A stretch of 64,000 bases of DNA from assembly GCA_965206775.1 (NCBI GenBank), contig CBDBKU010000003.1, positions 1,672,884 to 1,736,883 on the forward strand. The letters run 5' to 3'. Below the pieces are notes generated by a model, which was not told the origin of the DNA, did no database searches, and saw nothing but the letters and a program-made list of their open reading frames with translations. This DNA is from Bryobacterales bacterium. GTDB lineage: Bacteria; Acidobacteriota; Terriglobia; Bryobacterales; UBA6623. This document shows positions 2,106 to 47,831 of the stretch, in pieces (position 1 is the stretch's first letter; each line of letters begins with the position of its first letter). The position numbers were made by a program, and so were the translations under genes.

Positions 2106-2698
2106 CGGCGGGATACGCCCGCCAAGCGGATTGCCGGTGCCAGTGCGCTGCGTGCCATTCGCCACCGGATTCCTGATCGTTCCGAGAATGCAGCAGCCGT
2201 CCCCAAATGATGACTGCTGGCCGCGAAATACGCCGTGCGCCAATCCGTAGCTGGGCGAGGCGTCGATTGCACTCGAGCGAAGGACTGCCAGTAGGCCGCT
2301 AAAGTGTCCGGACTAGTCCAGTGACCGCACGAATCGCGGTCCAGTCACCTCGCCGACCTCCCTCCGGTACGGAATTGGCAGTTCCTGCCGGTGAAGACCG
2401 GCGCCCGGCGCCTGTCGAGCTCGCGCGCCGCATTCCCGCCATCGCGGCGCGCGCAATGCGGATACCACGATCCAACTTGGCTCGGGAACTCGAACATACT
2501 CGATCGCGAACAGTTGCGGAGCAAGTCTTCAAGCACAACAATCGGAATTGGATGTCGCGGTGAGCGGATCGGAGCCGTTGATCCTTTCTTCAGCAATTCG
2601 GTCAAGGCCCGGTCACTTCGTTGAATCTGCGGCTCGCACGCTCCCGCGCCAGGAGCACTCTCCAAGGTTCAATCCCTACTATTCCGATAGGAATTGGG

Positions 2699-2704
2699 TA
2701 TAAT
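2699..2704 (+). promoter_or_regulatory. Candidate -10 box (TATAAT) 8 nt upstream of the sat ATG; implies a leaderless or near-leaderless sat mRNA
   Basis: A perfect TATAAT lies at 2699-2704 and the ATG at 2713. No Shine-Dalgarno sequence lies between them and I could not find a convincing -35. Confidence 0.3.
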
Positions 2705-2712
2705 GAAGCTGC

Positions 2713-3825
2713 ATGTCCGAACAAGGAGGGCAGGTGGATGACCTGCGTGTCCCGTCAGGTCCGGCCTACGAGGCGTCTTTTCGGCAGCTGAGCGACCTGT
2801 ACCTTCTGGCTGAGGGCGGGTACGCCCCGCTTCGGGGCTTCTTGAATGGCGCCGAGACCCGCTCGGTCTGCAGGACGATGCACCTCACGACTGGGGAGCC
2901 GTGGAGCATCCCGTTGCTGTTCCCGATCGACGCGCAGACCAGGGCTCGCTTGGGCTCCGCGGATCAGGTCGTCCTGATGGACGGGCGCGTCCCAGCCGGC
3001 ATCCTCCGTGTCGAGGACATCTTTCCGATCGACAAGGAGCTATACGCCAAGAACGTCTTCCGGACCCTTGACCACGCTCATCCGGGAGTCGCTTGGCTGG
3101 GCGGAGCGGGGGACTATTCGATTGCCGGGACCGTCGAGGCGTTCCAGGAATGGAACATCGACATTCCCGGATCGCTGCCGATTTCTCCGCGTGAGACTGC
3201 GGCCTTGGTGGCTGCGAAGGGATGGAACACGGTTGTCGGTTTCCAGACGCGGAACCCGATCCACAGAGCTCACGAGTTCTGCACCAAGATCGCGCTTGAG
3301 ACGGCCGACGGGTTGGTGATTCACCCGCTGCTAGGGGAAACCAAGGACGACGACACGCCTGCGGAGGTGCGCCTCGCCTGCTACGAGGTCCTGCTCCGCA
3401 AGTACTATCCGCCTGATCATGCGCTGCTCGCGGGGTTTCCTGCGTGGATGCGCTACGCGGGGCCCCGCGAGGCCATATTCCACGCCCAGGTGCGCAAGAA
3501 CTACGGAATTACGCACTTTATCGTCGGAAGGGATCATGCCGGCGTCGGGGACTACTACGGTCCGTTTGACGCCCAGAAGATCTTTTCTGAGTTTGAGAGT
3601 GGCGAGTTGGGCATCGAACCGATCTTTTTCGATTTCGTGCACTACTGCAATGCCTGCGGAGGAATGGCCTCCAAGAAAACGTGTCCGCACTCGCCCGAGC
3701 ATCACGTTCACTTGGCGGGTCGGGAGGTGCGCAAGATGCTGCGAGAAGGCAAGGTGCCTCCGAGCGAGTTCACGCGCCCGGAGGTTGCCGGGATTCTCAT
3801 CGCCGCAGCCCGGGAGGAGGAGTGA
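2713..3825 (+). CDS. sat: Sulfate adenylyltransferase (ATP sulfurylase)
   Basis: 370 aa with the motifs GFQTRNPIHRAHE and IVGRDHAGVG, which are diagnostic of the homo-oligomeric ATP sulfurylase family. Confidence 0.9.
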   Translation: MSEQGGQVDDLRVPSGPAYEASFRQLSDLYLLAEGGYAPLRGFLNGAETRSVCRTMHLTTGEPWSIPLLFPIDAQTRARLGSADQVVLMDGRVPAGILRVEDIFPIDKELYAKNVFRTLDHAHPGVAWLGGAGDYSIAGTVEAFQEWNIDIPGSLPISPRETAALVAAKGWNTVVGFQTRNPIHRAHEFCTKIALETADGLVIHPLLGETKDDDTPAEVRLACYEVLLRKYYPPDHALLAGFPAWMRYAGPREAIFHAQVRKNYGITHFIVGRDHAGVGDYYGPFDAQKIFSEFESGELGIEPIFFDFVHYCNACGGMASKKTCPHSPEHHVHLAGREVRKMLREGKVPPSEFTRPEVAGILIAAAREEE

Positions 3826-4607
3826 GCCTTCCCCGGCCCAGGTTCACCTGGCCGTCGCGCAGCGCGACAGCCGAGGAAGTCTTGCGCTGGGGAATAGAGG
3901 AGTTCGGTCAGAGCCTGGCTGTCTGCACGAGCTTCCAGGCTTCCGGCTCGGTGATCCTGGATATGGCGGCGAAACTCGTTGGCGGAGACGTCAACGTCTT
4001 TAGCATCGACACCGGAAGGCTGCACGAGGAAACGTACGAGCTGATCGGGGAGTATCGTCGTCGCTACGGGATTTCCGTTAAGTTGATCGCCCCGGACGCG
4101 GAGGAGCTGGGCTCGATGCTCACGATGTACGGCCCCAACCTGTTCTACGAGAACTCTGCCAAGCGGAAACTCTGCTGCGAAATTCGGAAGGTTCGTCCGT
4201 TGAAGCGCAGGCTTGCAACGCTCGATGCGTGGGTCACGGGCCTGAGGCGTGATCAGAATGGCAGACGCGAGCGGATCGAGAGAGTGGCGGTAGACGAGGA
4301 GCACGGCGGCATCGTCAAGCTCTGTCCTCTGGCAGACTGGAGTAGGGAGCAGGTCTTTGACTACGCCAAGCGGCACGACGTGCCATTGCATCCGCTCTAT
4401 GCAAAGGGCTATTCCAGCATTGGCTGCCAGCCATGCACCAGACCGGTGAGGCGAGGCGAGAGCGATCGCTCGGGTCGCTGGTGGTGGGAAGACGACATCG
4501 ACAAGGAGTGCGGCATGCATTTCTCGGCCGCGGGTAGGAGTCGTCGGGAATTCGATCTTCTGTTGGACGAGGTCCTGCCCGCGCGACGACCCTATTTTGT
4601 GAAATAG
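3822..4607 (+). CDS. cysH: Adenylylsulfate (APS) reductase, thioredoxin-dependent, [4Fe-4S]-type CysH
   Basis: It has the PAPS/APS reductase fold. The Cys pairs KLCCEIRKVRPL and SIGCQPCT mark cluster-containing APS reductases, and the catalytic motif is ECGMH. I chose the GTG at 3822, which overlaps the sat TGA (GTGA). The ORF-track start at 3681 overlaps sat out of frame. Confidence 0.85.
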   Translation: MSLPRPRFTWPSRSATAEEVLRWGIEEFGQSLAVCTSFQASGSVILDMAAKLVGGDVNVFSIDTGRLHEETYELIGEYRRRYGISVKLIAPDAEELGSMLTMYGPNLFYENSAKRKLCCEIRKVRPLKRRLATLDAWVTGLRRDQNGRRERIERVAVDEEHGGIVKLCPLADWSREQVFDYAKRHDVPLHPLYAKGYSSIGCQPCTRPVRRGESDRSGRWWWEDDIDKECGMHFSAAGRSRREFDLLLDEVLPARRPYFVK

Positions 4608-5622: not shown

Positions 5623-6663
5623 CTATGTCCCCGGCAGCCCCTCTGGCAGAAAGCGGTAAACGGCGACGATGTAGAGGCAGTAGCCCGCAAGAAGGACGTA
5701 TCCGAAGCCGCGCCGCAAGACGTCCTTGGATACCAACACCCCCATCCGGAAAATGATCAGAATGAAGAGCATCGCTGGGAAGAGTACCGAGAAGAAGTTC
5801 CCGCCGGCATGAAGGCCGGCTGGAGTGACCGCCGCTGCGGCGCCTGCCACGAAGAGTACGTTCAGGATATCGGCCCCGATCACATTGCCCACGGCCAGCT
5901 CGCCTTGCCCGCGACGGGCAGCAGTCACCGCCGTAACGAGTTCAGGCAGGGACGTGCCGAAGGCGACCAGCGTTGCGGCTATCACGCTCTCTGGCACGGA
6001 AACGCGCATGGCCGCCTCGGTCACGCCGGGTATGACGAAGTGTGCCGACACGACGACGAAGGCAATCGCCGCGATCAGTTTCAGCAGCGTCAGCCAGGCT
6101 GGGCTTTGCTGCGGGCTGTCCGACTTTTCCGTCCCGGACCGCTGCTGGCCCGCCCAGCGCACCGAGACGTAGAGGTAGGCTGCGAGAAGCGCTAGAAGGA
6201 CGAAACCGCTCTCCTGGGCCAGCGTACCACCCGAGGTGAACAGTTGGTCCGGACGGGTCCAAGGCACGCTCAGCAGTACCAGAAGCAGGCCTGCGCTAAT
6301 TTGGATCCAGCCTTGGCGGTTTACGATCTTGGGATCGAGTCTCAGCGGCGCGATCAGGCATGCGACGCCCAAGATCAGGCCGGTGTCAGCAATGACCGAC
6401 CCGACCGCGTTGCCCAGTGCCAGGCCGGGAGACCCCTCGATCGCTGCCAGGACCGAGACCGCCGCTTCTGGTGCCGTGGTGCCGAGGCTGACAATCGTCG
6501 CCCCGACGACCATCGGCGGGATGCGCAGGCTCGCAGAAAGCTCGACCGCTTCGTCCACGAGCACGTCGGCGGCCTTGCCGAGAACCAGCAGCGATGCCGC
6601 AATGCTGGCTAGGAGAATCGACCAATGGACCTGCGAGAAAAAATGCGCGAGCGCGTCGTCCAT
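5623..6663 (-). CDS. Ca2+/Na+ antiporter, CaCA (YrbG-like) family
   Basis: A polytopic membrane protein with the two alpha-repeats GTTAPEAAVS...GNAVGS and GTSLPELVTA...GNVIGA. The start is ambiguous: I chose the ATG at 6663 (MDDALAHFF), while the ORF track extends to 6726. Confidence 0.8.
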   Translation of the reverse strand: MDDALAHFFSQVHWSILLASIAASLLVLGKAADVLVDEAVELSASLRIPPMVVGATIVSLGTTAPEAAVSVLAAIEGSPGLALGNAVGSVIADTGLILGVACLIAPLRLDPKIVNRQGWIQISAGLLLVLLSVPWTRPDQLFTSGGTLAQESGFVLLALLAAYLYVSVRWAGQQRSGTEKSDSPQQSPAWLTLLKLIAAIAFVVVSAHFVIPGVTEAAMRVSVPESVIAATLVAFGTSLPELVTAVTAARRGQGELAVGNVIGADILNVLFVAGAAAAVTPAGLHAGGNFFSVLFPAMLFILIIFRMGVLVSKDVLRRGFGYVLLAGYCLYIVAVYRFLPEGLPGT

Positions 6664-6762
6664 TCCGAATCTAGAGTCTATCGAATCTCGAGCATTCCGC
6701 CGTGCGCGACCGTCCGGATCAGGCACTTCGCACTACAATACGGACGGGAAGGCGAGAACCAC

Positions 6763-9700
6763 ATGTATCGGTATCCGCGCCTTGGTCGGGCACTGTTCGC
6801 TCCCGCGTTGGCGTTGCTGCTTTCGCTCACGGCGGTGGCGAGTGAAGCTGGCTTGGAGCACTTCGAGAAGAAAATCCGGCCTCTCCTTGCGGAGAATTGC
6901 TACGCGTGCCACGGCGCGGACGCTCCCAGTGTCTTCGCAAACCTGCGCCTCGACAGCCGAGCCGGGCTCCTGCGTGGAGGCGACTCGGGACCAGCTGTCG
7001 TGCCTGGCGACCCGGCCGCCAGCCTCCTCCTCCGGGCCGTGCGGGGCGAGGCGAAGTCCCTCATGCCCCCCACCGGCCGGCTTGATGCTGACCAGATCGC
7101 CGACCTTGCCGCATGGGTGGCGGCTGGCTCGCCCTGGCCCGACGAGCAGGCCCTGGGCCTGCCCGATCCGAGCGAGGCATTCGACCTCGAGCGGAGACGG
7201 CGGGAGCACTGGGCATGGCAACCGGTCCGCCCGACATCACCGCCCACTGTCCGGAACGAGGACTGGTCGCAATCGACTGTCGACCGATTCGTTTTGGCCC
7301 GGCTCGAGGAGAAGGGACTGGAACCAGCCCCTTCTGCAGATCGCCACACGCTCCTGCGCCGGCTCTCGTTTGCGTTGACCGGCTTGCCGCCGACCCCCAA
7401 GGAAATCGCCGACTTTCTCCAGGACGATTCTTCCCGGGCCGAGGAAACCGTCGTGGAGCGCCTTCTGTCATCGCCTCATTTCGGCGAGCGCTGGGCCCGC
7501 CACTGGATGGATCTGTTCCGCTACACCGAGTCGCACGGCAGCGAAGGAGACCCCGACATCCCAGAGGCGTGGCGCTACAGGGACTACCTCATCCGCGCGT
7601 TCAATGACGACGTGCCGTACGACCAGCTCGTGCGGGAGCACCTCGCCGGCGATCTTCTGCCGGAACCGCGCTACAACGAAGCGCTGGGACTGAATGAGTC
7701 GCTGCTTGGTACGGCGCAATACCGGATGATCGAGCATGGCTTCCAGCCAGTCGACCCATGGGAAGACAGGGTCAAGTGGACCGACAACCAGATCGACGTC
7801 GTTTCGAAAGCGTTCCAAGGCCTGACCGTCACCTGCGCTCGGTGCCACGATCACAAGTTCGACGCGATCAGCCAGAGCGACTACTATGCCCTGTTCGGCG
7901 TCTTGGGCAGCGCGCGTCCTGTCCAGCGGGCGGTGGACAGTCCGGACTTGCTGCGCAGGCATCAAGACGCGTTGCGGCAAGCGAAAGCTGGGATTCGGCC
8001 CGCCCTTGCGGCGGTTTGGACAGAAGCTGTCGACGGAATTCCCTCGAGGCTGCGGAAGGGCGATGAGGTGATTGCCCGTGCTCTCGAAGCCGCTGCCTGC
8101 GACCCGGATAGCCCGTTGTACCCATGGTTCGACTTGGGCGATCTGTCCGGGGAGGAAATCGAGGTCGGCTGGAAGCGCCTTAGGGACGACTGGAACCGGC
8201 AGCATGCTCTGCGGGAAGCGTTCAACGACGAGAAGTTCAACGCAATCTGGCGGCTCGACGAGGGGCTTTCGGGGTGGAAGCTCCTCGGAACAGGCATCGA
8301 GCAAGGCGCGTCGGAGGCAGGCGAGTTCTCGATCCTGCCCGACGGGGACCGCGTCGTCGAGGGTATTTACGGGTCCGGCGTCCACAGCGGCCTGCTCTCG
8401 CGACGGCACAACGGTGTGCTGCAGACCCCACGCTTCACGATCGACACCAACTACATCAGCTTCCTCGTGCAGGGGTCCGGTTTCAGCGTCGTCCGCCTGA
8501 TCGTGGAGAACTATGCCGTTCCGCGTGCCGGAATTTACTGGCAGCGCTACTCGCCGAAGTCGGACGCTCCGGTTTGGGCCGGCTGGGACACCACCTATTG
8601 GAAGGGGTTCAGCGCATACCTGGAGTTCGCCACGATGCAAGACGCCACCAACTTCCTGCTGGATAGGGAGGATGCGAGGAAGAAGCCGGCGCCCAAGCCC
8701 CCGACGGACGGGCGTTCGCATTTCGGCGCGCTGGCCGTGGCGTTCCACGACGGCTCCGAATCACCTAGGGATTCCGAGACGGCGATTGCATATCTGCTCG
8801 AAGGAGATCCGCCGAAGAGCGCGGACGAGCTGGCCCAGCGTTACGCTGAGCGCCTGCGGGATGCCGTTGACGCGTGGCGCGACGGACCGCTGCCACCACG
8901 CCAGGCGGCGTATCTCGACTTCTTTGTCCGAAATGGCCTCCTTCCGGTGTCCTCGGGGACGTCGGACCGCTTAGATGGCTTGGTTTCGGCGTATCGCGCA
9001 TTGGAAGAGGAGGTGCCGATCTACCGGCGCGCGCCGAGCGTGCTCGACGAAGCCGGGCCGGACCAGCCACTGCTGGTGCGGGGCAGCCACAAGGATCGTG
9101 GCGAGCCGGTTCCTCGCCGCTACCTGACGGCTTTCGGCGGCAAGCTCTACGCCGATCCTGCGACGACGCGGTTGCGGCTTGCCGAGGAGATGACCGACCC
9201 GCGGAATCCCCTGACCGCGCGGGTCATGGTCAACCGAGTGTGGAAGCACCTGTTCGGCCGGGGCCTCGTCGCGACGGTCGATAACTTCGGGCGCGTCGGC
9301 AATGCACCGTCTCATCCCGAACTCCTGGACTACCTGGCCGATCGGTTCGTGCAGGACGGCTGGTCACTCAAGAAGCTGATCCGCCGCCTTGTCCTGACCT
9401 CGACCTACCAACTCGACAGCGACCCCTCCGCCCCGTCCTCGCAAGTGGATCCGGGGAACGTGCTTCTGCAGCATATGCCAGTCCAGCGATTGGAAGGCGA
9501 GGCCATCAGGGACAGCCTGCTCGCGATTTCGGGCAGGCTGGACTCGAAGCTGCTTGGGCCTTCCGTGAACGTTTACTACGCCTTCGCCAAGGGCAAGACC
9601 AAGGGCGACCGGGTGAAGGGACCGCTCGACGGGGACGGCCGGCGCAGTGTCTACCAAGAGATCCGGCGCAACGCGCAAAATCCGTTCCTCGAGGTGTTCG

Positions 9701-10008
9701 ACCAGCCCAAGCCGTCTTCAACACGAGGGCAGAGGGACACGACGAACGTTCCGGCTCAATCCCTGACAATGCTCAACAGCCCAATGGTTCGCGCTCAGGC
9801 GGACCTGTGGGGGCAGCGCCTCGCAGAGAGGGCAGAGCCCGCCTCCGACACGGTCAAGTCGATGTTTCTCTCCGCTTTGGGGCGTCCTCCGGCCCCGCTG
9901 GAGCTCGATCGCAGCTTGGGCTATCTTGCAGAGAAGCCCGGAGCCGACGCGTGGTCAGATCTCGCTCATGCGATGTTCAACCTCAAGGAATTCCTCTACG
10001 TCCGCTAG
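6763..10008 (+). CDS. PSCyt1/DUF1549/DUF1553 family protein (cytochrome-c-like N-terminal domain)
   Basis: The ATG at 6763 gives a signal peptide (MYRYPRLGRALFAPALALLLSLTAVA). It has the heme-binding-like motif CYACHG and DUF1549-type motifs (LLRRLSFALTGLPPTPKEI, CARCHDHKFD). The DUF1553-type motif is NPLTARVMVNRVWKHLFGRGLV. Confidence 0.85.
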   Translation: MYRYPRLGRALFAPALALLLSLTAVASEAGLEHFEKKIRPLLAENCYACHGADAPSVFANLRLDSRAGLLRGGDSGPAVVPGDPAASLLLRAVRGEAKSLMPPTGRLDADQIADLAAWVAAGSPWPDEQALGLPDPSEAFDLERRRREHWAWQPVRPTSPPTVRNEDWSQSTVDRFVLARLEEKGLEPAPSADRHTLLRRLSFALTGLPPTPKEIADFLQDDSSRAEETVVERLLSSPHFGERWARHWMDLFRYTESHGSEGDPDIPEAWRYRDYLIRAFNDDVPYDQLVREHLAGDLLPEPRYNEALGLNESLLGTAQYRMIEHGFQPVDPWEDRVKWTDNQIDVVSKAFQGLTVTCARCHDHKFDAISQSDYYALFGVLGSARPVQRAVDSPDLLRRHQDALRQAKAGIRPALAAVWTEAVDGIPSRLRKGDEVIARALEAAACDPDSPLYPWFDLGDLSGEEIEVGWKRLRDDWNRQHALREAFNDEKFNAIWRLDEGLSGWKLLGTGIEQGASEAGEFSILPDGDRVVEGIYGSGVHSGLLSRRHNGVLQTPRFTIDTNYISFLVQGSGFSVVRLIVENYAVPRAGIYWQRYSPKSDAPVWAGWDTTYWKGFSAYLEFATMQDATNFLLDREDARKKPAPKPPTDGRSHFGALAVAFHDGSESPRDSETAIAYLLEGDPPKSADELAQRYAERLRDAVDAWRDGPLPPRQAAYLDFFVRNGLLPVSSGTSDRLDGLVSAYRALEEEVPIYRRAPSVLDEAGPDQPLLVRGSHKDRGEPVPRRYLTAFGGKLYADPATTRLRLAEEMTDPRNPLTARVMVNRVWKHLFGRGLVATVDNFGRVGNAPSHPELLDYLADRFVQDGWSLKKLIRRLVLTSTYQLDSDPSAPSSQVDPGNVLLQHMPVQRLEGEAIRDSLLAISGRLDSKLLGPSVNVYYAFAKGKTKGDRVKGPLDGDGRRSVYQEIRRNAQNPFLEVFDQPKPSSTRGQRDTTNVPAQSLTMLNSPMVRAQADLWGQRLAERAEPASDTVKSMFLSALGRPPAPLELDRSLGYLAEKPGADAWSDLAHAMFNLKEFLYVR

Positions 10009-29668: not shown

Positions 29669-29729
29669 ATCGGATCGATAGCCTCGGTACGACGCTCCCC
29701 TCGGGGCAGTGTCCATCCAAAGGAGATTG

Positions 29730-31820
29730 ATGCCGAAACAACGACTCTTCCTGTCCGGCGATGTCGGCTTCGAGGGAGGCGAACTGCGACGCTCTTGCAG
29801 CGACACTCTCGACGAGGTGATTTCCAGGCGCATCCTGCGTCGCTCGCTCCTGAAGGGCGGCGCAATGGCCCCGCTCTTCTGCCTGGGCGCGGTCGCGAAC
29901 CTCAAGGGACACCATGCTGACGAAGGCCTTTCGTTCTCTCCTATCCAGGGCAGCCTGGACGACGAGATCGCAGTGCCCGATGGGTACAAGTGGGCGCCCT
30001 TGGCCGCATGGGGCCAGCCCTTGACATTCGACGCTCCGGACTTCGATCCGGACAACCTGGATGCCGCCGCTCAGCGACAGCAAGTGGGATACAACTGCGA
30101 CTTCGTCGCGTGGTTCGACTACATCCGCAACTCCGGCATTGTCTGTGTAAACCACGAATACACGAATCCTGACCTGATGTTTCGCAACTACTCGGCAGAG
30201 AACACAACGCAGGCCCAAGTAGACTACGAGATCGCCGCGCACGGCGTGTCGATGTTTCTCGCCTCCCGCAAGGCGGCTTCCGACGGGCCCAGCTACGGGC
30301 TCTACGGCGGCAGCGCCTTCAACCGGCGCATTCACGGAGAAACCCCGATTACGATCTCTGGACCAGTGGCGGGCAACCCGCTTCTGGTGACGGCCTCTGA
30401 CCAGACCGGCCAGACGGTAAACGGAACGTTCAACAACTGCGGCGGCGGCGTCACGCCCTGGGGCACCTATCTGACCGCCGAAGAGAAGTTCGACCAGTAC
30501 TTCGCAAACAACAAGGCCGTTTCGCACGAGATGGCCAAGACCGCGAACGATCGCTTCGGCGTGGGAGAGGAAGGCGGCAGGCGCCCTTGGTGGCGCTTCC
30601 ATCGGCGGTTTGACCTGAACTACGAGCCGAATGAGATCAACAATTTCGGCTGGGTCGTCGAAATCGACCCCTACAGGCCGAAGTGGACTCCGCGGAAGCG
30701 CACGGCGATTGGCGGGTTCAAGCACGAGGCCGCGGCTACAACTCTCTCCGCAAACAGGAATGCGGTGGTGTATTCCGGCGACGACGCTCGCTTCGAGTAC
30801 GTGTACAAGTTCGTCTCGGACGGTGTCTACAACGAAGCGGACCGCGAGAGCGCCAAGCAACTGCTCGACAGCGGGACGCTCTATGTCGCGAAGTTCAACG
30901 ATGACGGGTCCGGCGAGTGGCTGCCGCTCGTCTACGAGAACGGCTCGCTCAATGCCAGCAACGGATTCACGAGCCAGGCGGATGTTCTGCTCTTCGCGCG
31001 GCAGGCGGGAGACTTGCTGGGAGCGACCAAGATGGACCGCCCCGAGGACATTGACATCAATCCGATCACCGGCAAGGTCTACGTCGCTCTAACTAGTGCC
31101 TGCGGCGGAAGTCCGTATTTCGTTGATATCCAATGGGTTTTGGCGATTTCCGGCGGGTGAAGATTCTGCCGGGAGGTCAGGATTCGCCGGAAATCCCACC
31201 GATTCGAATGGATTCGTGCAGATCTTCGCATTTTGGAGATCAGGAGTCACCGAAGCATGAATACAAGATGCTGTATGATCGATTCGCTCCAAGGATGACA
31301 CCCCGCCCAGATTTCGGGGGTTTTGTCGCAGGCACTAACTAACAACACACGGCGCGAGCCCGGCAACGACAACGGAGCGACGACATTCACTTGGGAGATC
31401 TTCATGCTGTGCGGCGATCCCGCTGACGAGGCTCAGGGAGCCTATTTCGCGGGCTTTGACACCAGCCGCGTGCGCAAGGTCGCGAACCCGGACAACTTGG
31501 CCTTTGACCAGCACGGCAACCTCTTGATCGCCACCGACGGGCAGCCGAGGAGGGTCGGCATCAACGACGGCATCTTCTTCGTGCCAACGGAAGGTCCCGA
31601 GCGGGGCTACAACCGCCAGATCTTCAGCGGAGTCGTGGGAGCCGAGTGTGCGTCGGTGATCATGAACTCCGCGCAGGATCTGATGCTGGTATCGATCCAG
31701 CACCCTGGCGAGGGCGGAACCCGCGAGGAGCGAGTCTCGACCTTCGGCGGACCGGTAGTCAATCGGCCGACCGTCGTGGCGGTCACGCGGATGCAGGCCC
31801 CGTACCGGATCGGCGCGTAA
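29730..31820 (+). pseudogene. phoX: PhoX-type alkaline phosphatase (DUF839) interrupted by a 242-bp insertion
   Basis: An AAGGAG ribosome-binding site precedes the ATG at 29730, and the Tat-type signal is SRRILRRSLL. The N-terminal ORF ends at a TGA inside the insert (31160). The C-terminal ORF resumes at ...ALTNNTRREPG and carries DNLAFDQHGNLLIATDG. Removing the insert and one AACT copy restores KVYVALTNNTRR. Confidence 0.8.
31095..31336. mobile_element. MITE-like non-autonomous element (242 bp)
   Basis: It has perfect 10-bp terminal inverted repeats, AGTGCCTGCG (31095-31104) and CGCAGGCACT (31327-31336). It is flanked by direct AACT copies (31091-31094 and 31337-31340). It has no credible ORF and is visibly AT-richer than the flanking DNA. 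Confidence 0.75.
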
Positions 31821-31826
31821 GCGGCA

Positions 31827-32149
31827 TTACCGGGCGGCGGGTCGTCCGCCGCCCGGACAGTCTCGCGTCAATCCGGAGAGCCGACACAGGTCTGCTATCA
31901 CCGCCATGAGAATCAGATTGGCACGTTCCGAAACGCAGCCACGGAATCCTTGCTGCAAGATCTGGCGGCTGGCCGCTACGCCGTGAGCGACGCTCCGGCG
32001 GATGGCAAGCGGGGCCGTTCGCGCAAGATAGGACGGAGCGTGGGGCACCGTGCCAAGTACGGCCCGCTTGCGGGCATCGTCGGTCCGAACAAGAAGATGA
32101 GACATCAACAACAGTGCTGATCGGAACGGGAGAGACTGTAGCCACGGCT
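31827..32149 (-). pseudogene. Possible C-terminal remnant of a DDE transposase truncated by the IS at 32150
   Basis: The minus-strand frame is open right up to the IS boundary. Its tail ...QGFRGCVSERANLILMAVIADLCRL resembles the RGL...a.a.NL.RL C-terminal signature of IS5/IS1182/IS4-type transposases. The match is weak and degraded. Confidence 0.3.
31830..31856 (+). terminator. Perfect 11-bp GC hairpin after phoX (CCGGGCGGCGG-gtcgt-CCGCCGCCCGG)
   Basis: The hairpin lies 10 nt after the phoX stop codon. There is no U tract, so it is an intrinsic-terminator-like or bidirectional stem. Confidence 0.4.
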
Positions 32150-32168
32150 GCGCCCATCTTTGGAGTTT
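32150..32168. repeat. Left terminal inverted repeat of the outer IS
   Basis: GCGCCCATCTTTGGAGTTT; its reverse complement occurs at 36533-36551 with one mismatch. Confidence 0.7.
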
Positions 32169-32356
32169 CGGCCCAGTCTAGGGCTATGCCGTAGCCGATT
32201 CGCTCCGCGTTAACCGCCTGAATCGGCGATTGTATCCAAGACAATGCCGATGACAACGCCGTGCAATCTCTTTATGTTCTTGTTTGGCCTGATTTCGAGC
32301 CCCGCCCTGAATGTGCTGACCACGTGCTGTCCACTAGTGTTGACAGATTGCCTCGC

Positions 32357-34336
32357 ATGCGATATCATCGGGCTGTGTTCGTCCGGCGCGTCGAAACTCG
32401 CTCCAAAGGCTCCGCCAGCGGTGTCGCTTACCGCTTGGTCCACTCCCAGCGCCAGGGCCCCAAGGTCCGCCAGCTGATCCTCGCCCATTTCCGTAGCGGC
32501 CTCGAGCAACGCGTCCCCCAAAGCCACTGGAAGCAGCTCGCCGCCGCCATCAAGGACTCTCTCACCGGACAGGCCCGCCTGCCATCCGCGCCCGCAGCCG
32601 ACCCTGAAACTCTCGCTCTCGCCCAGCGCATCGCCACCGAGGCCGCCGTCATCGCCCCCCTCGTGCGCAGCCGCCTCCGCGACGCCGGTTACGACCTCGG
32701 CTTCCGCATCGCCGACGACACTCCGCCCCAGCCGCCGACCGAATCCCCGCTCGCCCTGCTGCCCTCCACCCTGCGCCACACCAACACGCGCGAGGCCGGT
32801 GCCGCCCGCCTGCTCGACCTGCTGGCCCGCGAGCTCGGCCTGCGCGAGTGCCTCCTCCAGTGCGGCCTGCGCCCCCGCCACGTCCGCCTGGGCCTCGCCC
32901 AGATCCTGGCCCGCGCCCTGCATCCGGGCAGCGAGCGCGAGACCCTGCGCTGGCTGCGCGAGGACTCCGCGCTCGGCGAACTGCTCGGCCTCGAGCCCGC
33001 CGATCTCTCCTCCAACTCCCTGTATGTCGCCGCCGACGCCCTTTGGAAGCACCGCGACTCCATCGAGCGGGCCTTGTTCGACCGCGAGCGCGACTTGTTC
33101 GGCCTGCAGCCGCGCATCGTCTTCTACGACCTCTCCAACACCTTCCACACCGGACGGCCCCGGCATCGCTACGCCGCCCATGGACGCTCCCAGCAGAAGC
33201 GCCACGACTGCCCGCTGGTCAGCTTGGGGCTGCTGCTGGACGGGCAGGGCTTCCCGCGCCGCTCGGAGGTGCTGGCCGGCAATGTGGGCGAGGCGGGCAC
33301 GCTGCAGGCGGCGATCGCGCGGCTGGACAGGGTCGCGGGCGAGCGCCCGACGGTGGTGTTCGATGGCGGGATCACGAGTGCGGCAAACCTAGCCTGGCTG
33401 CGGGAGCAGGGCCTGCACTGGATCACGCTCGAGCGGCGGCGCAAGCCGGCCCCGGAACGCGAGCCCGACACGGAGTGGGAGAGCGCTGGCGGTCACGAGC
33501 TGAAGATCTGGCGGCTGGCAGCGACGGAGGCCGGCGAGGCGGAGGCCTCCGCACAGGCAGCGGCGGGCGGGGAGGCGCGCCTGTGCGTGTGGAGTCCGGC
33601 CCGGGACAAGGACGAGCAGTCGCTGCTGGATCGCAAGCGGGAGCGCTTCGAGGCGGCACTGCGCTCGCTGCACGCAGGGCTGAGCGTGAAGGGCCGGCTG
33701 AAGGCCTTCGACAAGGTGACGCGCAAAGTCGGGCGGATCGAGGAGACGCACAAGCTGGTGGCGTGCCAGTACACGGTGACGGTGCAAGCCGGGGAGAAAG
33801 GCAAGGCCGCGGCGGTGCAATGGGAGCCGAACCAGCGGTACCGGGAGCGCGACCGGGTCCAAGGCACGAGCCTGCTGCGCACGAGCCGGGTGGATTGGGA
33901 CGACCAGCGGATCGTGCGGGAATACTGCCGCCTGGCCGACATCGAGGCGACCTTCCGCTCGTTCAAGGACGAGCTGGGCCTGCGCCCGATCTACCACAGT
34001 CTAGGCGAGCGGGTCGCGGGACACCTGTTCCTGACCGTGCTGGCGTACCACCTGGTGCACGCCTTGCGCTATCGCCTGCGTGCGCGAGGGATCAGCTGGA
34101 GCTGGAAGTCGATCCGGAATCGGATGCGCACCTGGATGCGGCTGACCACCACGATGCGGACGGCTCAGGGGAAGGTTTGGAGCCAGCGCCAGGACGTGGA
34201 CCCGAATCCGGAGCAGGCACGCATCGCCGCCGCTGCGGGGCTGAGCTTCCGACGCCACCCCCGCACCGTGCCCGTGGATCAAGGCAAGATCCAAACGGAC
34301 CGAGAAAGCGAGGCAAGTCCCAGCAACAAAGTGTAG
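32357..34336 (+). CDS. IS1634-family (IS4 superfamily) DDE transposase
   Basis: 659 aa from the ATG at 32357. The N-terminus MRYHRAVFVRRVETRSKGSASGVAYRLVHSQRQG follows the IS1634 pattern (FxRxVxxKxKGKxYxYxLVES.R). The C-terminus LFLTVLAYHLVHALR is typical of DDE_Tnp_1. Confidence 0.8.
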   Translation: MRYHRAVFVRRVETRSKGSASGVAYRLVHSQRQGPKVRQLILAHFRSGLEQRVPQSHWKQLAAAIKDSLTGQARLPSAPAADPETLALAQRIATEAAVIAPLVRSRLRDAGYDLGFRIADDTPPQPPTESPLALLPSTLRHTNTREAGAARLLDLLARELGLRECLLQCGLRPRHVRLGLAQILARALHPGSERETLRWLREDSALGELLGLEPADLSSNSLYVAADALWKHRDSIERALFDRERDLFGLQPRIVFYDLSNTFHTGRPRHRYAAHGRSQQKRHDCPLVSLGLLLDGQGFPRRSEVLAGNVGEAGTLQAAIARLDRVAGERPTVVFDGGITSAANLAWLREQGLHWITLERRRKPAPEREPDTEWESAGGHELKIWRLAATEAGEAEASAQAAAGGEARLCVWSPARDKDEQSLLDRKRERFEAALRSLHAGLSVKGRLKAFDKVTRKVGRIEETHKLVACQYTVTVQAGEKGKAAAVQWEPNQRYRERDRVQGTSLLRTSRVDWDDQRIVREYCRLADIEATFRSFKDELGLRPIYHSLGERVAGHLFLTVLAYHLVHALRYRLRARGISWSWKSIRNRMRTWMRLTTTMRTAQGKVWSQRQDVDPNPEQARIAAAAGLSFRRHPRTVPVDQGKIQTDRESEASPSNKV

Positions 34337-34398
34337 TGCCTTCAAATCCACTTGGCGGAATTCTTGGTCAATAGAATCAATGACTTACAAATGTGAAT

Positions 34399-34436
34399 CA
34401 CCGATTTTCATTTCCAATATAGAGACCTAATTTTGG
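34399..34436. repeat. Left terminal inverted repeat of the nested IS
   Basis: CACCGATTTTCATTTCCAATATAGAGACCTAATTTTGG aligns with the reverse complement of 36486-36521 with a few mismatches and indels. Confidence 0.75.
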
Positions 34437-34471
34437 CGATAAAGCCAAGCACGAGCGACGCCCCATGGGAT

Positions 34472-36191
34472 TCATGATCGGGAAGCTCCGTTAAAGACGA
34501 GTTGGCGGTTGCCCAGCCAGGGGATGCGCGTGGTGCCGACGGTCTGGAGGGCCTCCAGCAGGGCGGGCAGGTCCCGTTTCTTCTTCAGCGAGACGGTGCA
34601 CAGGTCCGGTGTGAGGGAGATGTCGGCGGCGGTGCAGAGGAGCTTCTCGTAGAGCGAGCGGGCGGTGAGCTGGCGGTAGCCGGGCGGAAGATCGAGGGCG
34701 AGCAGGCGCAGGAGATTGTAAGCGAGGACGGTCATGGCAAGGTCGAAATCGACCTTGATGACCATGGAGGAGGAGAGGAGGTGGAAGAAGGCGAGCTGCT
34801 CGGCAATGGATTGCTCGACGAGCCAGCGGCGGGCGTAGCGGCGCAGGATGGCGGCAAGGCTGGAGTCGAAATCGTTGGTGAGCAGCAGGGAGGGGCGCCG
34901 GTGTTCGCCGCGCAGGATGGTGATCTGGCGCAATTCGCCGCCGAAGTCGCGCAGCGCGACAGTTGCGTCGTGGGCGGTGACCAGGCGCGTGCCCGAGGCA
35001 GCGGGGACACGGATGCTGCGCAAGGAGGACTTGTCGAGAGCGCGCGCGTTGGCGAGCAGGCGCTTGCCGCGGCGGCGGACGGTGACGAACAGGATGCCTT
35101 CCTGGTCGAGGCGGGCGAGGCTGGCGTAGGTGGTGAAACGGCTGTCGAAGACGAGGTAGCGGATGGGCGGGCCGTGGCGGCGGGAGAAGTCGAGGAACTC
35201 GAGGGCGGTGCCGGCGCTGGTCTCATTGCGGACGCTGCTGGCGTCGGCCTGCAGGAGCAGGCCGGAGTCGGGGTCCTGGGCGAGGGCGGCGGAGATGCTG
35301 ACGAGGGAGCGGCCGCGAGTGCCGGACCAATGCCTTTGCAGGGTGGCGTCATCGCCCCAGTGGGGCAAGGTGGTGAAATCGAGGTTGGCGGAGTCGCCGG
35401 CGAGGCCCTTGGCGGTCCAGATGGAGGCGAGGGCACCGAGCAGGCGCTGGTTCATGGCGCGCGTGGTGCGATCGGAATACGAGGAAAGCGAGGCGGTCTT
35501 GGGCAGGACGTTGAGGCCGGCGAAGAGGCCGAGGCCGCGATCCATGCACCACAGGTCGTCGGCGCTGTAGCGGCGGGCATCGGAGAGCTTGAGGGCGACG
35601 AAGGCGAGCACCGACTGCAGGGCCGGCAGGGTGCGGGTGCCGGGGTAGCCGGCCTCGGCGATCGCGGTGTCGAGGCCGTAGCGGCGGATCCAGGGCAGCA
35701 GGCAGAGCGTGCCGGCGGCGCGCTCGGACTGGAAAGTCTCCTCCGCGCGCGGGTCGAGCAAGACGCTCGCGGGAGCGCGCAGGCGGGGCGCGGGTGCGGC
35801 GGGGCAGGCGCTGGAAGCCCTCCTCGCGCAAGACATGCCCGATCGCGCGCAGGCTGGGAGCGTCGCGCAGTTCGGCGTCGAGGCGGGCCTTGATGTCGGG
35901 CAGGGACAGGTTCGCCTTGCGCAATTCGATCACGCGCTGGCGCACGTCCGGCAGCGGCAGGACAGGAACGCGACCGGGGGCCTCGGGTGGTCGGAAGAAG
36001 AACGCGGCCTGGTCGTCCAGACGGCGGAAGTCGCGGGTCATCGCATAAACCGAGCCGATGGCATAGCCGAAGCGCCGGGCGACGGCCTCGGCGGAGAGGC
36101 CCTCGAAGCAGAAGGCGCGCAGGACTTCGTACCGCCGTTGGAGCGGGTTGGCAGGCTGGGCAAAGAATGAGGCGTCGGACTGGGAGGACAT
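34472..36191 (-). pseudogene. Transposase of the nested IS (N-terminal HTH plus DDE_Tnp_1-like core), split by a +1 frameshift
   Basis: The N-terminal frame runs from 36191 to about 35790 (MSSQSD...GFQRLPRRTR). The C-terminal frame runs from about 35764 to 34472 and is displaced by +1 nt. It carries the motif YARRWLVEQSIAEQ (Y-2-R-3-E). The junction lies in the GC-rich GCGCCCCGCC tract. Confidence 0.7.
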
Positions 36192-36485
36192 GGCGGGTGC
36201 CTGATTTAGGTTATCATATCGAATATGAAACAACTATAGCAAGTTAACTAAACACAAATCGGGTTCCGGGCCATCAGCACAGAAAGCATGCGGGATCCGG
36301 CACTTGCAGCCATTTCATGTCGCGCTGTCGGCTGCGGGGGCATGTTTTAGGCCCAACCGGGATGTCGCCTGAGCCAAGAATCGCTTGGCGTGCACCTAAC
36401 CTTCGCCGAACTCGAGAAATCCGTAAATCACTCAATTCAGGGATGTTGTGCGATCGGCGATCGATCTCAGGCCAGTCTGCGCACA

Positions 36486-36521
36486 CCAGAATTAGGGTCT
36501 AATCGGAAATGAAAATCCGTG
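36486..36521. repeat. Right terminal inverted repeat of the nested IS
   Basis: See the left repeat at 34399-34436. Confidence 0.75.
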
Positions 36522-36532
36522 TGAATTGCAAA

Positions 36533-36551
36533 AAACTCCAAAGATGGGTGC
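36533..36551. repeat. Right terminal inverted repeat of the outer IS
   Basis: AAACTCCAAAGATGGGTGC is the reverse complement of 32150-32168 (18/19). Confidence 0.7.
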
Positions 36552-36711
36552 GGTCTCATACGTGGTCACGTTGAACAAAGCCGGACATCTCGCGGAATCG
36601 GTCATTCGAGCGGTCGGAAGCTTCGATTGGTGGGCAATTTCAACCGACTCCCAGCCAGCCTTCGCCGCCGCCGGGCCTTGGCACGTTGCACACCGGCTCT
36701 AGCGCTGTTCG

Positions 36712-44600: not shown

Positions 44601-47600
44601 ATGCTGCACGTTGGCGCTGCTAAGGACACCGAGCAAAACCTGCTCGACAAGAAATCAACGACCACCCACGAGCGAGTCGGTCCGCCTGACGGCAACCGCC
44701 ATCCGTCTCGATGGGCAGTCCCGCCGAACGAGCGGAATCGCCTGTTTGCTCTTTGGATCGTCCTCTCAATTCTCCTGGTCGGGGCGTCCGCGCAGGCTCA
44801 GCAAGTCGGCGATCAGCATGCGGAGCGCATGGCTCGTGGCCTTGAGGTCTTCCGGAACGACGTCCGTCCCCTGTTGGTCAGCACCTGCCTTGCGTGCCAC
44901 GGAGACGGACAGGTTATGGGAGGCCTCGACCTGACCTCGCGCGGCTCCTTCGTCGCTAGCGGGAAGGTCGGCATGTCAGCCGAGTCGAGCGCGCTTGTCG
45001 CCGTCTTGCGACACGAGCGAAAACCCTTCATGCCCTTCGGCCAGGACAAGCTGCCCGATGCGAAAATCGACGCGGTCGCTCGCTGGATTGACCTCGGCGC
45101 TCCGTACGACCAGCCCCTAGGTGGTGGCTCCGGCCCAGAAGACACGCAAGCGGGTGAAGACTCCCAGTTCTGGTCATTCCGGCCGCTCGCGGATCCCGAT
45201 CCCCCGGCGGTTGCTGACGAGGCGTGGGTTAGGACGCCAGTCGACCGGTTCATTCTGGCAAAGCTCGAAGGCGCCGGAATCGCGCCGAATTCGCCCGCGA
45301 GCCGCCGCACGATGATTCGACGTGCCTCGCTCGACTTGCTGGGGCTGCCGCCGAGCCCGGAGCGCGTCGAGGAATTCGCCCACGACTCGGAGCCCCGTTC
45401 GTATGAGCGCCTGATTGACGACCTTCTGGAGTCGCCGCACTTCGGCGAGCGATGGGCGCGTCACTGGATGGACATCGCGCGCTTCGCCGAGAGTTACGGC
45501 TTCGAGGAGGACTACGACCGTCCGTTCGCGTACCACTACCGGGATTTCGTGATCAAGGCATTCAATCGTGACATGCCTTACGACCGGTTCGTCAGGCTCC
45601 AGGTGGCAGGTGACGAATTGGAGCCGGAGAATCCGCTCGCGCTTGTGGCAACCGGATTCATGGGACACGGACCGTTTCCGACGGAGATCACAGAGGCGGA
45701 ATTCGAGACGTCGCGCTACGACGAACTCGACGACATGATCGGCACGCTCGGGACCGCGATGCTTGGGCTGACGGTAGGCTGCGCCCGCTGCCACGACCAC
45801 AAGCACGATCCAATATCAGCTCGCGACTACTACCGGATGGCAGCGATCTTCGGTCGCACGACCCGAACCACCATCGAACACGATCCAAACCCCGGGCAGT
45901 TCAGGAGGGAAAAGAGCAAATGGGAAGTCCGGCGAAGCCAGCTGCGTGAGGAACGAAAGGAAATCGAGCGCAAGCTGGGCGGCGAGGAATTCGAGCAGTG
46001 GCTCCGAGATGGCGCGCCTGGCTCTGGTGCTGTCGACTGGCAAGTCCTGGACATCGTAGACATCAAGTCCACAAGCCAGGCACGGACGGACATGCTGGAC
46101 GATGGCTCGATTCTCTTCAGCGGCGACAATGTCGACTTCGACACCTACCACCTCACCGCGGACATTGCCGCCCCGGCAATCCGGGCACTGCGGGTCGAAG
46201 CGCTGACGCACCCCACATTGCCGTTCAACGGCCCGGGTCGCTCGCACGACGGGGAGTTCTTGCTCGGCGTCGTTACCGCGGAGGCTCGACCGGTCTCCGA
46301 CCTCGAGGCCGAACCGGCGAAGCTCGATTTCGGGAGCGCCCGCGCGACGGACCAGCTGGATGCTGACTACTCCTCGGTGGCAGCGGCCATCGGCGACAAC
46401 AGCAAAAGGAGCGGCTGGGCGCTGCCGCCCCGAGAGATCGGATCGGACCATGCCGCGATCTTTGACTTCAAGGAACCCGCCCGGTTCGATGGCGGCTCCC
46501 GGCTGGTGATCAAGTTGCAATTCGGCTACAACTCGCACCTCAGCCTCGGACGCCTTCGCTTGTCCGCGACAGGCTCGAGCGAACCTGACTTCTTGGTCGG
46601 TGAGGGCATTCCGCAAAGGCTGGCCGAAGCTCTGGCCAGGCTTCGCGCGAAGGGCGCGGACGCTCTGTCGGACGCCCAGAAGTCTGCGCTGCTCGGGGAA
46701 TTCGCTCGCAAGGATGACAAGTGGCTAGCGGCAACTGCGGCAATCCGCGACCACGAGTCCCGGGTGCCTGTGACGTCTTTCACGAAGATACAAGCGACGG
46801 CCGAAGGATTCGCCAATCCGCGGCACAATGCGAACGGAAAAGGCTATCCGCACTACTACGAGCAGACTCACGTCCTTCAGCGCGGCGACGCGAGCCTCAA
46901 GCTGGAGCCTGCGGAACCAGAGGTATTGCCGATACTCGTCCGGCACGGCGCAGGAACGGCGCGATGGCCGGCGAAGCCACCCCCAGGATGGAAACGCAGC
47001 GGATTCCATCGAGCCTCCCTGGCTAACTGGCTGACAGACCCCGAACACGGAGCGGGCGCACTGCTCGCTCGAGTGATCGTGAATCGAGTCTGGCACCACC
47101 ATTTCGGTACAGGAATCGTGGCCACGCCCAGCAATTTCGGAAAGATGGGCGCACGTCCTAGCCATCCCGAACTGCTCGACTGGCTGGCACGGGATCTTGT
47201 CCGGAGCGGCTGGCGACTGAAGCGCCTGCACCGGTTGATCATGACCAGCAGCAGCTACAAGGTAGCTTCCTCGGGCGACATCGCGAAGGCGGCCGCCGAC
47301 TCGGCCAGTCGCCTTCGGTGGCGCTGGACGCCGCGACGGCTCGAAGCCGAGGCAGTTCGCGACTCAATGCTGACCGTGTCCGAAACCCTCGATCCCACCA
47401 TGTACGGTCCCGGAGCGCAGAACGAGAGCATGCCGAGACGGAGCGTCTACTTCTTCGTCAAGCGCAGCGAACTGATTCCCTCGATGATGCTATTCGACTG
47501 GCCCGAGCATCTGGTCGGCATCGGGCGGCGACCCTCCACCACCATCGCGCCGCAAGCGCTGCTCTTCCTCAACAGCCCGCACACCCGTCGGTACGCGGAA

Positions 47601-47831
47601 GGCTTCTCCGGTCGGCTGGCTGGCTTGGACCGGGAGGCGGCGGTCGACATGGCCTATCGGATCGCATTCGCGCGCCCGCCGGGACCGACCGAGAAAGCTC
47701 AAGGGGTGGCCTTCCTCGAGCGTCAAGGGGAACTCTACGGCAAGGATGGCAAGCCCGAACCAAGCCGGCTCGCGCTTGCCGATTATTGCCAGTCCCTGAT
47801 GAGCCTGAACGAATTCCTTTACATCCGGTGA
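44601..47831 (+). CDS. PSCyt1/DUF1549/DUF1553 family protein
   Basis: It has the CLACHG motif after a transmembrane/signal segment. The DUF1549 motifs are MIRRASLDLLGLPPSPERV and CARCHDHKHDPISARDYY. The DUF1553 motif is ARVIVNRVWHHHFGTGIVATPSNFG. It is a paralogue of 6763-10008. The start is uncertain (45-aa N-terminal extension). Confidence 0.85.
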   Translation: MLHVGAAKDTEQNLLDKKSTTTHERVGPPDGNRHPSRWAVPPNERNRLFALWIVLSILLVGASAQAQQVGDQHAERMARGLEVFRNDVRPLLVSTCLACHGDGQVMGGLDLTSRGSFVASGKVGMSAESSALVAVLRHERKPFMPFGQDKLPDAKIDAVARWIDLGAPYDQPLGGGSGPEDTQAGEDSQFWSFRPLADPDPPAVADEAWVRTPVDRFILAKLEGAGIAPNSPASRRTMIRRASLDLLGLPPSPERVEEFAHDSEPRSYERLIDDLLESPHFGERWARHWMDIARFAESYGFEEDYDRPFAYHYRDFVIKAFNRDMPYDRFVRLQVAGDELEPENPLALVATGFMGHGPFPTEITEAEFETSRYDELDDMIGTLGTAMLGLTVGCARCHDHKHDPISARDYYRMAAIFGRTTRTTIEHDPNPGQFRREKSKWEVRRSQLREERKEIERKLGGEEFEQWLRDGAPGSGAVDWQVLDIVDIKSTSQARTDMLDDGSILFSGDNVDFDTYHLTADIAAPAIRALRVEALTHPTLPFNGPGRSHDGEFLLGVVTAEARPVSDLEAEPAKLDFGSARATDQLDADYSSVAAAIGDNSKRSGWALPPREIGSDHAAIFDFKEPARFDGGSRLVIKLQFGYNSHLSLGRLRLSATGSSEPDFLVGEGIPQRLAEALARLRAKGADALSDAQKSALLGEFARKDDKWLAATAAIRDHESRVPVTSFTKIQATAEGFANPRHNANGKGYPHYYEQTHVLQRGDASLKLEPAEPEVLPILVRHGAGTARWPAKPPPGWKRSGFHRASLANWLTDPEHGAGALLARVIVNRVWHHHFGTGIVATPSNFGKMGARPSHPELLDWLARDLVRSGWRLKRLHRLIMTSSSYKVASSGDIAKAAADSASRLRWRWTPRRLEAEAVRDSMLTVSETLDPTMYGPGAQNESMPRRSVYFFVKRSELIPSMMLFDWPEHLVGIGRRPSTTIAPQALLFLNSPHTRRYAEGFSGRLAGLDREAAVDMAYRIAFARPPGPTEKAQGVAFLERQGELYGKDGKPEPSRLALADYCQSLMSLNEFLYIR

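Follow-up and report, generated by a model that had tools for sequence, protein, structure and literature searches.

Two insertion sequences (ISs) lie one inside the other in a 64,000-nucleotide stretch of a Bryobacterales contig (the window), and the arrangement raises the question of which of them arrived first and whether either can still move. Nested "IS-in-IS" insertions are common in IS-rich bacterial genomes. Here, the insertion site is the spacer of ~490 bp between convergent phoX-like and gcvPB genes. Our analysis indicates that the nested insertion is real but ordinary biology, and that the reading given in a first-pass annotation is essentially correct. The structure very probably results from two successive transpositions into the phoX-like/gcvPB spacer, of an IS1634-family element first and of an inner element, which is now defective, second. 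The features of both elements are listed in Table 1.

Table 1 Features of the nested elements, in window coordinates (TSD, target site duplication).
Feature	Position	Strand	Remark
Left outer TSD copy, TGCG	32149..32152	.	Identical 4 bases directly outside both ends
Left terminal inverted repeat, CCCATCTTTGGAGTTT	32153..32168	+	16/16 with right end
Left 2246 bp of outer IS, through original TGAAT target	32153..34398	+	
Promoter-like site TTGACA-17-TATCAT	32340..32368	+	11/12 consensus matches; putative function
Outer transposase gene, intact	32375..34336	+	653 aa from GTG; 659 aa from ATG 32357
Conserved non-coding subterminal block of outer IS	34337..34388	+	Right-end alignment, five copies
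Left TGAAT copy, outer-IS sequence	34394..34398	.	Adjoins inner IS
Inner IS, 2123 bp, defective	34399..36521	-	Homology to solo copy L003 covers exactly this interval
C-terminal (DDE) inner transposase frame	34472..35790	-	Pfam DDE_Tnp_1, 39 bits
23-bp deletion site, frameshift	35787..35791	-	Ambiguous by ~4 bp, CGCC microhomology
N-terminal (helix-turn-helix) inner transposase frame	35791..36191	-	tblastn, P0122 residues 1-135, 81% identity
Right TGAAT copy	36522..36526	.	Adjoins inner IS
Final 22 bp of outer IS	36527..36548	+	Includes right inverted repeat 36533-36548
Right outer TSD copy, TGCG	36549..36552	.	

Ends and target duplications of the outer element

With the inner element included, the outer IS spans 32153-36548, a nested unit of 4396 bp. 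The window copy was compared with four uninterrupted relatives, L001, L002, L005 and L006. Homology starts and stops at identical bases (32153 and 36548) in all five copies, which occupy unrelated sites; the solo copies that the first-pass annotation had proposed as a check on the termini thus end where our refined window ends do. Excision of 34399-36526 in silico, which leaves a single TGAAT, yields an element of 2268 bp, equal in length to the closest solo relative L002, and homology to the four relatives is colinear across the excision. End to end, the excised copy (32153-34398 joined to 36527-36548) is 92.7% identical to L002, 85.6% to L001 and 77% to L005 and L006 at the nucleotide level, and the relatives are 2256-2286 bp long.

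The refined ends differ slightly from those annotated initially. A 19-bp inverted repeat, GCGCCCATCTTTGGAGTTT, had been placed at 32150-32168 and, as its complement, at 36533-36551. The repeat is present with 18 of 19 matches, but three of its 19 bases belong to TGCG, which leaves a 16-bp repeat and moves the outer ends inward by 3 bp. The inner IS, described as sitting 25 bp inside the right outer end, is 22 bp from the refined terminus. No further copy of GCGCCCATCTTTGGAGTTT was found elsewhere in the window, with 0 expected in shuffles. A partly palindromic target duplication can masquerade as additional inverted-repeat bases.

The 4-bp outer duplication is a direct repeat in four of the five copies (TGCG in the window, CGCA/CGCA in L001, CGCG/CGCG in L005 and CGAG/CGAG in L006); in the fifth, L002, it is imperfect (TGCG/CGCG), with three of the four bases matching. 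L005 and L006 are 98.6% identical to each other and have unrelated flanks as well as different duplications. The three non-palindromic cases are direct, not inverted, repeats. The duplication is short, unlike that of IS4 proper, which measures roughly 10 bp.

The outermost bases (GCG...CGC) look palindromic, and the first-pass annotation had raised the alternative that the 19-bp repeats mark a palindromic target or hairpin in the chromosome, the inner element alone being mobile. We assign this reading a negligible probability and regard it as excluded, since the 2.27 kb between the repeats is homologous, at 77-93% identity, across five unrelated sites and has the same stop bases at each; moreover, the enclosed gene encodes an IS1634-family transposase.

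The outer transposase and its family

The open reading frame at 32357-34336 is uninterrupted and its product matches IS1634 transposases, as annotated before, but its length is probably 653 rather than 659 aa. The most likely start codon is the GTG at 32375; homologs begin with MFVRR at this position, and the codon is ATG in L001, L005 and L006. The protein is 91% identical to P0001 (653 aa), matches Pfam DDE_Tnp_1 and scores 268.2 bits against the NCBIfam model NF033559 (transpos_IS1634; cut-off 100, E = 1.6e-79). Residues D258, D336 and E530, shared by 17-19 of the 19 homologs in the alignment, are all found in the window copy. The YREK-type motif reads YCRLADIEATFRSFK, corresponding to Y-x2-L-x3-E-x6-K. 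Searches of PDB sequences with the outer and inner transposases returned nothing significant.

A promoter-like site precedes the gene. Its -35 hexamer does not vary among the five aligned outer copies, each of which also has a -10-like hexamer. With only 6 nt between the end of the conserved -10 box and the likely start codon, a leaderless transposase transcript may be used.

The IS1634 family, formerly the IS1549 group, is an emerging family that was split from IS4 (De Palmenaer, Siguier and Mahillon 2008, PMC2266710). The outer element resembles its members in encoding one long DDE transposase, which scores above the cut-off of the NCBIfam IS1634 model. Its YREK-type motif is without the canonical arginine, which is missing in most IS1634-family members (PMC2266710). 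The refined ends, both CCCATCTT, fit the family consensus C-----YT (PMC2266710), whereas the ends claimed earlier (GCGCCCAT) would not. Two properties set the element apart. At 2268 bp, it is longer than the 1500-2000 bp given for the family (PMC2266710), a modest excess that is due to the long transposase and ~220 bp of 5' non-coding sequence. Its duplications are 4 bp long and GC-rich across the five copies, in contrast to the 5-6 bp, AT-rich duplications of the family, and unlike those of IS1634 and IS1549 themselves, which are long and variable (PMC2266710).

The closest relatives of the outer IS come from soil-type metagenome genomes of uncultured organisms, one of them a Bryobacterales MAG. 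In GTDB species genomes, the outer transposase as query found one relative only, L001; the source genome lies outside that collection. The scan of IMG/VR gave one remote relative of the outer element. In an exact-protein look-up, the outer transposase of the window was not on record; look-ups of P0002 and P0134 found no record either.

Structure and defect of the inner element

The inner inverted repeat CACCGATTTTCATTTCC was recovered as first described, with 16 of 17 matches between 34399-34415 and 36505-36521 and an extension to roughly 38 bp if indels are allowed; without gaps, 34399-34418 and 36502-36521 match at 18 of 20 positions. Both copies of TGAAT directly abut the inner element and lie within outer-IS sequence, again in agreement with the earlier description. 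A solo copy, which had been suggested as a means of confirming the termini, is provided by L003 (2670-4822, 88% nucleotide identity), which shares the ends at 34399 and 36521. The duplication is 6 bp (TTGAGG) in this single solo copy examined, as against 5 bp here. For L007, an 82% identical relative, the right end was found; the left end was unrecognisable, and no duplication could be read.

The inner transposase is divided between two frames. Its C-terminal part is 89% identical to residues 131-582 of P0122; the N-terminal part occupies another frame. In a three-way DNA alignment, 23 bp that are kept in L003 and L004 are lost from the window copy, which also carries a 6-bp in-frame deletion near 34779 relative to the same two sequences. 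The inactivating 23-bp deletion is absent from the first-pass reading of the inner element.

Programmed ribosomal frameshifting occurs in IS3 and IS1, and the overlapping N-terminal helix-turn-helix and C-terminal DDE frames resemble an orfA/orfB layout; on this reading, the split would be functional and the inner element autonomous. We consider this very improbable. Full-length homologs, relatives at 72-91% identity among them, are encoded as one uninterrupted protein of ~580 aa, the change of frame coincides with the CGCC-flanked 23-bp deletion that L003 and L004 do not have, and a conserved NR dipeptide is also lost from the window copy. With the frameshift, the inner IS is now non-autonomous; both its ends survive, and it could move only in trans.

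In its DDE_Tnp_1 match, which is above the Pfam cut-off, its short duplication of 5-6 bp and its terminal inverted repeats of ~17-38 bp, the inner element is like members of the IS4 superfamily, near IS1380, IS701 and IS4. The transposase differs from those of these three families in its length, ~580 aa in relatives, and in an extra N-terminal helix-turn-helix region, which weakly matches N-terminal regions of IS481 and IS630 transposases. Profile scores were 43 bits for IS1380 (cut-off 180), 35 for IS4 (cut-off 115) and 22 for IS701 (cut-off 170), and none of the NCBIfam IS-family models reached its cut-off with either P0122, a full-length relative, or the window fragment. A tblastn search of PLSDB plasmids revealed no homolog of the inner transposase, and a scan of IMG/VR no relative of the inner element. 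The outer and inner elements are not closely related: when their transposases were compared directly, a marginal local match (26%) around the C-terminal catalytic region was all that emerged.

Order of insertion and history of the locus

TGAAT is present in single copy at the homologous position of the solo outer copies L001 and L002; the window has two copies, one on each side of the insert. Since it is single in uninterrupted relatives, the outer element was there first, which bears out the order of events proposed initially. As in the usual IS-in-IS arrangement, one element is interrupted, the inner TSD is made up of bases of the outer element and the structure reveals which insertion came first. 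There is no difference of principle; here, the transposase gene and both inverted repeats of the outer element are spared.

The proposed history has three steps. A 2268-bp IS1634-family IS with perfect 16-bp inverted repeats and a 653-aa DDE transposase would have inserted first, duplicating TGCG. An unrelated IS of 2.1 kb would then have entered its non-coding right end, 22 bp from the terminus, duplicating TGAAT. The inner copy would have lost 23 bp, causing the frameshift, and a further 6 bp in frame, before or after its arrival. The transposase gene of the outer element is intact, and its two inverted repeats and conserved promoter-like site are still in place. As the inner insertion spares the gene and the repeats, the outer IS is not obviously inactivated, and it may still be mobile, with the inner IS as 2.1 kb of cargo. 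The subterminal block at 34337-34388 is now 2.1 kb from the right terminus.

IS elements are classic misassembly sites and are prone to such errors, and an assembly chimera formed from collapsed repeats would be another source of such an arrangement. We judge this highly improbable. Two short-read metagenome contigs, L008 and L009, are 99.6-99.7% identical to the window. Both run from the right flank through TGCG, the outer end and ATTCA into the inner IS, of which they include 55 bp before stopping at the same base, a pattern typical of a k=55 assembly breaking at a repeat. Because these contigs, independent assemblies from two studies, reproduce the junction of right flank, outer end and inner end, the nested right junction is not an assembly artefact. 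In addition, perfect target duplications surround both elements. The left outer junction was seen in the window only. A third contig, L014, is 99.4% identical and ends 2 bp into the inner IS; because this is just 2 bp past the TGAAT duplication, it fits either the nested or the un-nested state.

The nesting could also have taken place elsewhere, with the whole 4.4-kb unit later transposing to the present site and making the TGCG duplication. TGCG flanks the entire 4396-bp unit, both outer repeats and the outer transposase are intact, and the structure alone fits such a composite arrival as well as it fits the simple order. We nevertheless think this unlikely. Neither the window nor JGI metagenome contigs yielded a second nested junction, and L014 ends at the last base common to the nested and un-nested states, which hints at polymorphism of the inner IS at this locus. 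If so, the inner IS would have arrived here, although the hint is weak because the coverage of the contig is 3.7x. A sequence continuing with ATTCACATTTGTAAG past window position 36520 would correspond to the predicted outer IS without the inner element at this locus. No empty site for either the outer or the inner insertion was recovered here; JGI metagenomes, when scanned for the predicted sequence of such a site, gave no match.

With two successive insertions at this site as the preferred reading, the surroundings can be described briefly. The locus is a small insertion hotspot, with three insertions within 5.5 kb, one of which knocks out a phoX-like phosphatase gene; a sister strain has an intact copy of this gene. 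Across the entire window, Rfam and tRNA scans found nothing.

Both IS elements are apparently undescribed, and their host appears to be an IS-active soil bacterium. It is conceivable, though doubtful on present evidence, that the outer element belongs to a soil Acidobacteriota-like IS1634 clade that combines a distinct geometry and target choice with a leaderless transposase, and that the window copy is mobile with a dead inner IS as cargo. Such a clade may cut its target with a 4-bp stagger, choosing CG-rich, near-palindromic sites (YGCG, CGCR, CGAG). The nested pair leaves the current understanding of transposition unchanged; the exact ends, target duplications and coding status of the two ISs can serve annotation and an ISfinder submission.

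Ends and family of the outer element

The locus holds two DDE-transposase insertions, an outer one that came earlier and an inner one that came later, each with its own target duplication. The limits of the outer element were drawn from five copies: that in the window and four related copies that lack an insert and come from unrelated places, one in a Bryobacterales MAG (L001) and three on long ENA metagenome contigs (L002, L005, L006). In-silico excision of 34399-36526 (the inner element and one TGAAT) leaves 2268 bp, the length of L002, colinear end to end with the four relatives and 92.7% identical to L002, 85.6% to L001 and 77% to L005 and L006. The first-pass annotation had bounded the element by a 19-bp inverted repeat, and GCGCCCATCTTTGGAGTTT at 32150-32168 does pair with 36533-36551 at 18 of 19 positions; neither arm was found a second time in the 64-kb window, and shuffles gave 0 matches. 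However, the tetranucleotides flanking CCCA...TGGG differ among the five copies and are arranged as direct repeats (in all three non-palindromic cases direct, not inverted). L005 and L006, 98.6% identical, have unrelated flanks and different tetranucleotides. Because of this variation, we place the element at 32153-36548. Its inverted repeat is 16 bp long and perfect, and it is flanked by a 4-bp target duplication, TGCG, that had been overlooked; the outermost three bases of the 19-bp repeat lie outside the IS. The one mismatch of that 19-bp repeat (G versus A) arises because TGCG is imperfect as a palindrome. The solo-copy check envisaged for these termini was run and the relatives end where the window copy ends, which excludes a palindromic target as the source of the repeats.

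Features of the outer element, its flanking tetranucleotides, and genes adjoining relatives of either IS
Feature	Position or copy	Description
Outer transposase ORF	32357-34336	659 aa from ATG; open frame, Pfam DDE_Tnp_1
Promoter-like TTGACA-17-TATCAT, near-consensus	32340-32368	end 6 nt upstream of GTG 32375
Outer 4-bp flank	window	TGCG/TGCG
Outer 4-bp flank	L001	CGCA/CGCA
Outer 4-bp flank	L005	CGCG/CGCG
Outer 4-bp flank	L006	CGAG/CGAG
Outer 4-bp flank	L002	TGCG/CGCG, 3/4 match
IS neighbours	L002	HsdM/N6_Mtase, GmrSD
IS neighbours	L006	MmeI, integrase
IS neighbours	L007	HsdM, ResIII/RE endonuclease

The outer transposase gene is intact. Its product has the DDE residues, reaches 268 bits with the NCBIfam IS1634 model (cut-off 100) and carries the motif Y-x2-L-x3-E-x6-K, the arginine-less YREK variant described for that family (PMC2266710). 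The ends CCCATCTT fit the family's terminal consensus C-----YT, which those first proposed would not (PMC2266710). The transposase, its catalytic motif and the terminal consensus thus all place the element in the IS1634 family, although it is longer (2268 bp versus a published 1500-2000 bp) and its duplication is 4 bp and GC-rich rather than 5-6 bp and AT-rich (PMC2266710). The earlier description of an intact IS1634-type transposase therefore stands in all but length: the protein most likely has 653 aa and starts at GTG 32375, since homologs begin MFVRR and the codon at this position is ATG in L001, L005 and L006 and GTG in L002 and the window.

Upstream of the gene, the TTGACA -35 is invariant and a -10-like hexamer lies at an equal position in all five copies. 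Because this conserved hexamer ends just before the start codon, the arrangement suggests a transcript that would be leaderless or nearly so. A conserved block, CTGAATGTGCTGACCACGTGCTG, precedes TTGACA (window 32308-32377 and homologous positions in the four relatives), and the region is perhaps a regulatory or binding site.

Landing site and inactivation of the inner element

The inner element has its own inverted repeats: CACCGATTTTCATTTCC at 34399-34415 and its partner at 36505-36521 agree at 16 of 17 positions; the match is 18/20 ungapped and reaches ~38 bp if two small indels are allowed. A solo relative, L003 (88% nucleotide identity), matches the window over exactly 34399-36521, which confirms the termini originally proposed. 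The position-4 mismatch between the repeats (CACGG versus CACCG) is found in L003 too and is therefore an ancestral asymmetry, not decay. TGAAT directly abuts both inner ends (34394-34398 and 36522-36526) and is single at the corresponding place in L001 and L002, which bears out both the reported 5-bp duplication within outer sequence and, with the colinearity of the excised copy, the order outer first, inner second. In L003 the duplication reads as 6 bp.

In the five-copy alignment, the outer right end comprises, from the terminus, a conserved 19-bp block, ~10 bp of poor conservation and a conserved non-coding block that extends as far as the stop codon. It was the poorly conserved part that the inner element entered, 22 bp inside the outer end, sparing the outer inverted repeat and transposase gene; the subterminal block (34337-34388) now lies 2.1 kb away from that end.

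Full-length relatives of the inner transposase are single proteins of ~580 aa with a helix-turn-helix region at the N terminus and a DDE_Tnp_1 domain at the C terminus; in the window, the two halves of the protein are in different frames. A three-way DNA alignment of the window with L003 and L004, another relative, shows a 23-bp deletion near 35791 with CGCC microhomology on its flanks; near 34779 a further 6 bp are lost in frame. Both deletions are absent from L003 and L004. The gene is thus mutationally inactivated, a point missed by the first-pass annotation, and because the 23-bp deletion separates the frames the copy is non-autonomous. Programmed orfA/orfB frameshifting was rejected, as the split comes from this deletion. 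With the inner transposase, every NCBIfam IS model stays below its cut-off (best, IS1380, 43 bits versus 180), and searches for plasmid and PDB homologs returned none; the element is a member of the broad IS4-like DDE_Tnp_1 superfamily without assignment to a family.

Insertion of one IS into another is commonplace. A second IS-on-IS rearrangement, from another metagenome, is seen in L004 (2556-6368), where a 94%-identical inner-IS copy, truncated at its transposase-proximal end (L004:4816), lies ~860 bp downstream of a transposase gene of another type, DDE_Tnp_1_4 (2556-3959).

Independent contigs, neighbouring insertions and mobility

Exact-protein look-ups with neighbouring genes yielded short-read metagenome contigs, from two studies, that are 99.4-99.9% identical to the window. 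On L008 and L009 the right flank leads through TGCG, the right end of the outer IS and ATTCA into 55 bp of inner IS, and the nested right-hand junction is therefore real. Both break off at one base, window 36467, as contigs of a k=55 de Bruijn assembly do at a repeat, which suggests that the inner IS is multicopy in these populations. L014, a 2115-bp SPAdes contig (sample ERZ6104093, 3.7x coverage), ends at window position 36520 (...GCAATTCACA), the final base at which nested and un-nested outer right ends still agree (...ATTCACA); this hints weakly at a graph branch from inner-IS polymorphism at the locus, or may be chance at such coverage. Arrival of the composite at this site already nested is improbable. 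JGI metagenomes yielded neither an empty site nor a second nested copy.

To the left, a phoX-like gene (29709-31820; PhoX phosphatase, PF05787) is split at 31094-31337 by a 244-bp non-coding element that ends in perfect 11-bp inverted repeats (TAGTGCCTGCG) and is present only once in the window. In L011, a contig from a strain 99.3-99.6% identical, the 614-aa PhoX gene is intact and the empty site reads GTCGCTCTAACTAACAACACACGG, so that the insert is 246 bp with its duplication, which is ambiguous at 2, 4 or 6 bp (AC, AACT or TAACTA). This looks like a MITE-type insertion that is recent and polymorphic among strains. Within the window, just one further internal similarity was seen, between 7461-7631 and 45422-45592 (69% identity over 171 bp); it falls in two large ORFs (6625-10008 and 44601-47831) and presumably marks paralogous domains. 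Elsewhere, relatives of both ISs adjoin restriction-modification or defence genes in L002, L006 and L007, a contig with an inner-element relative, and the outer-IS relative in L005 interrupts a TonB-dependent-receptor-like gene.

The outer element may still be mobile, since transposase, inverted repeats and promoter-like site are all intact, in which case the inner element would travel with it as cargo. Intact copies elsewhere could mobilise the inner element itself in trans.
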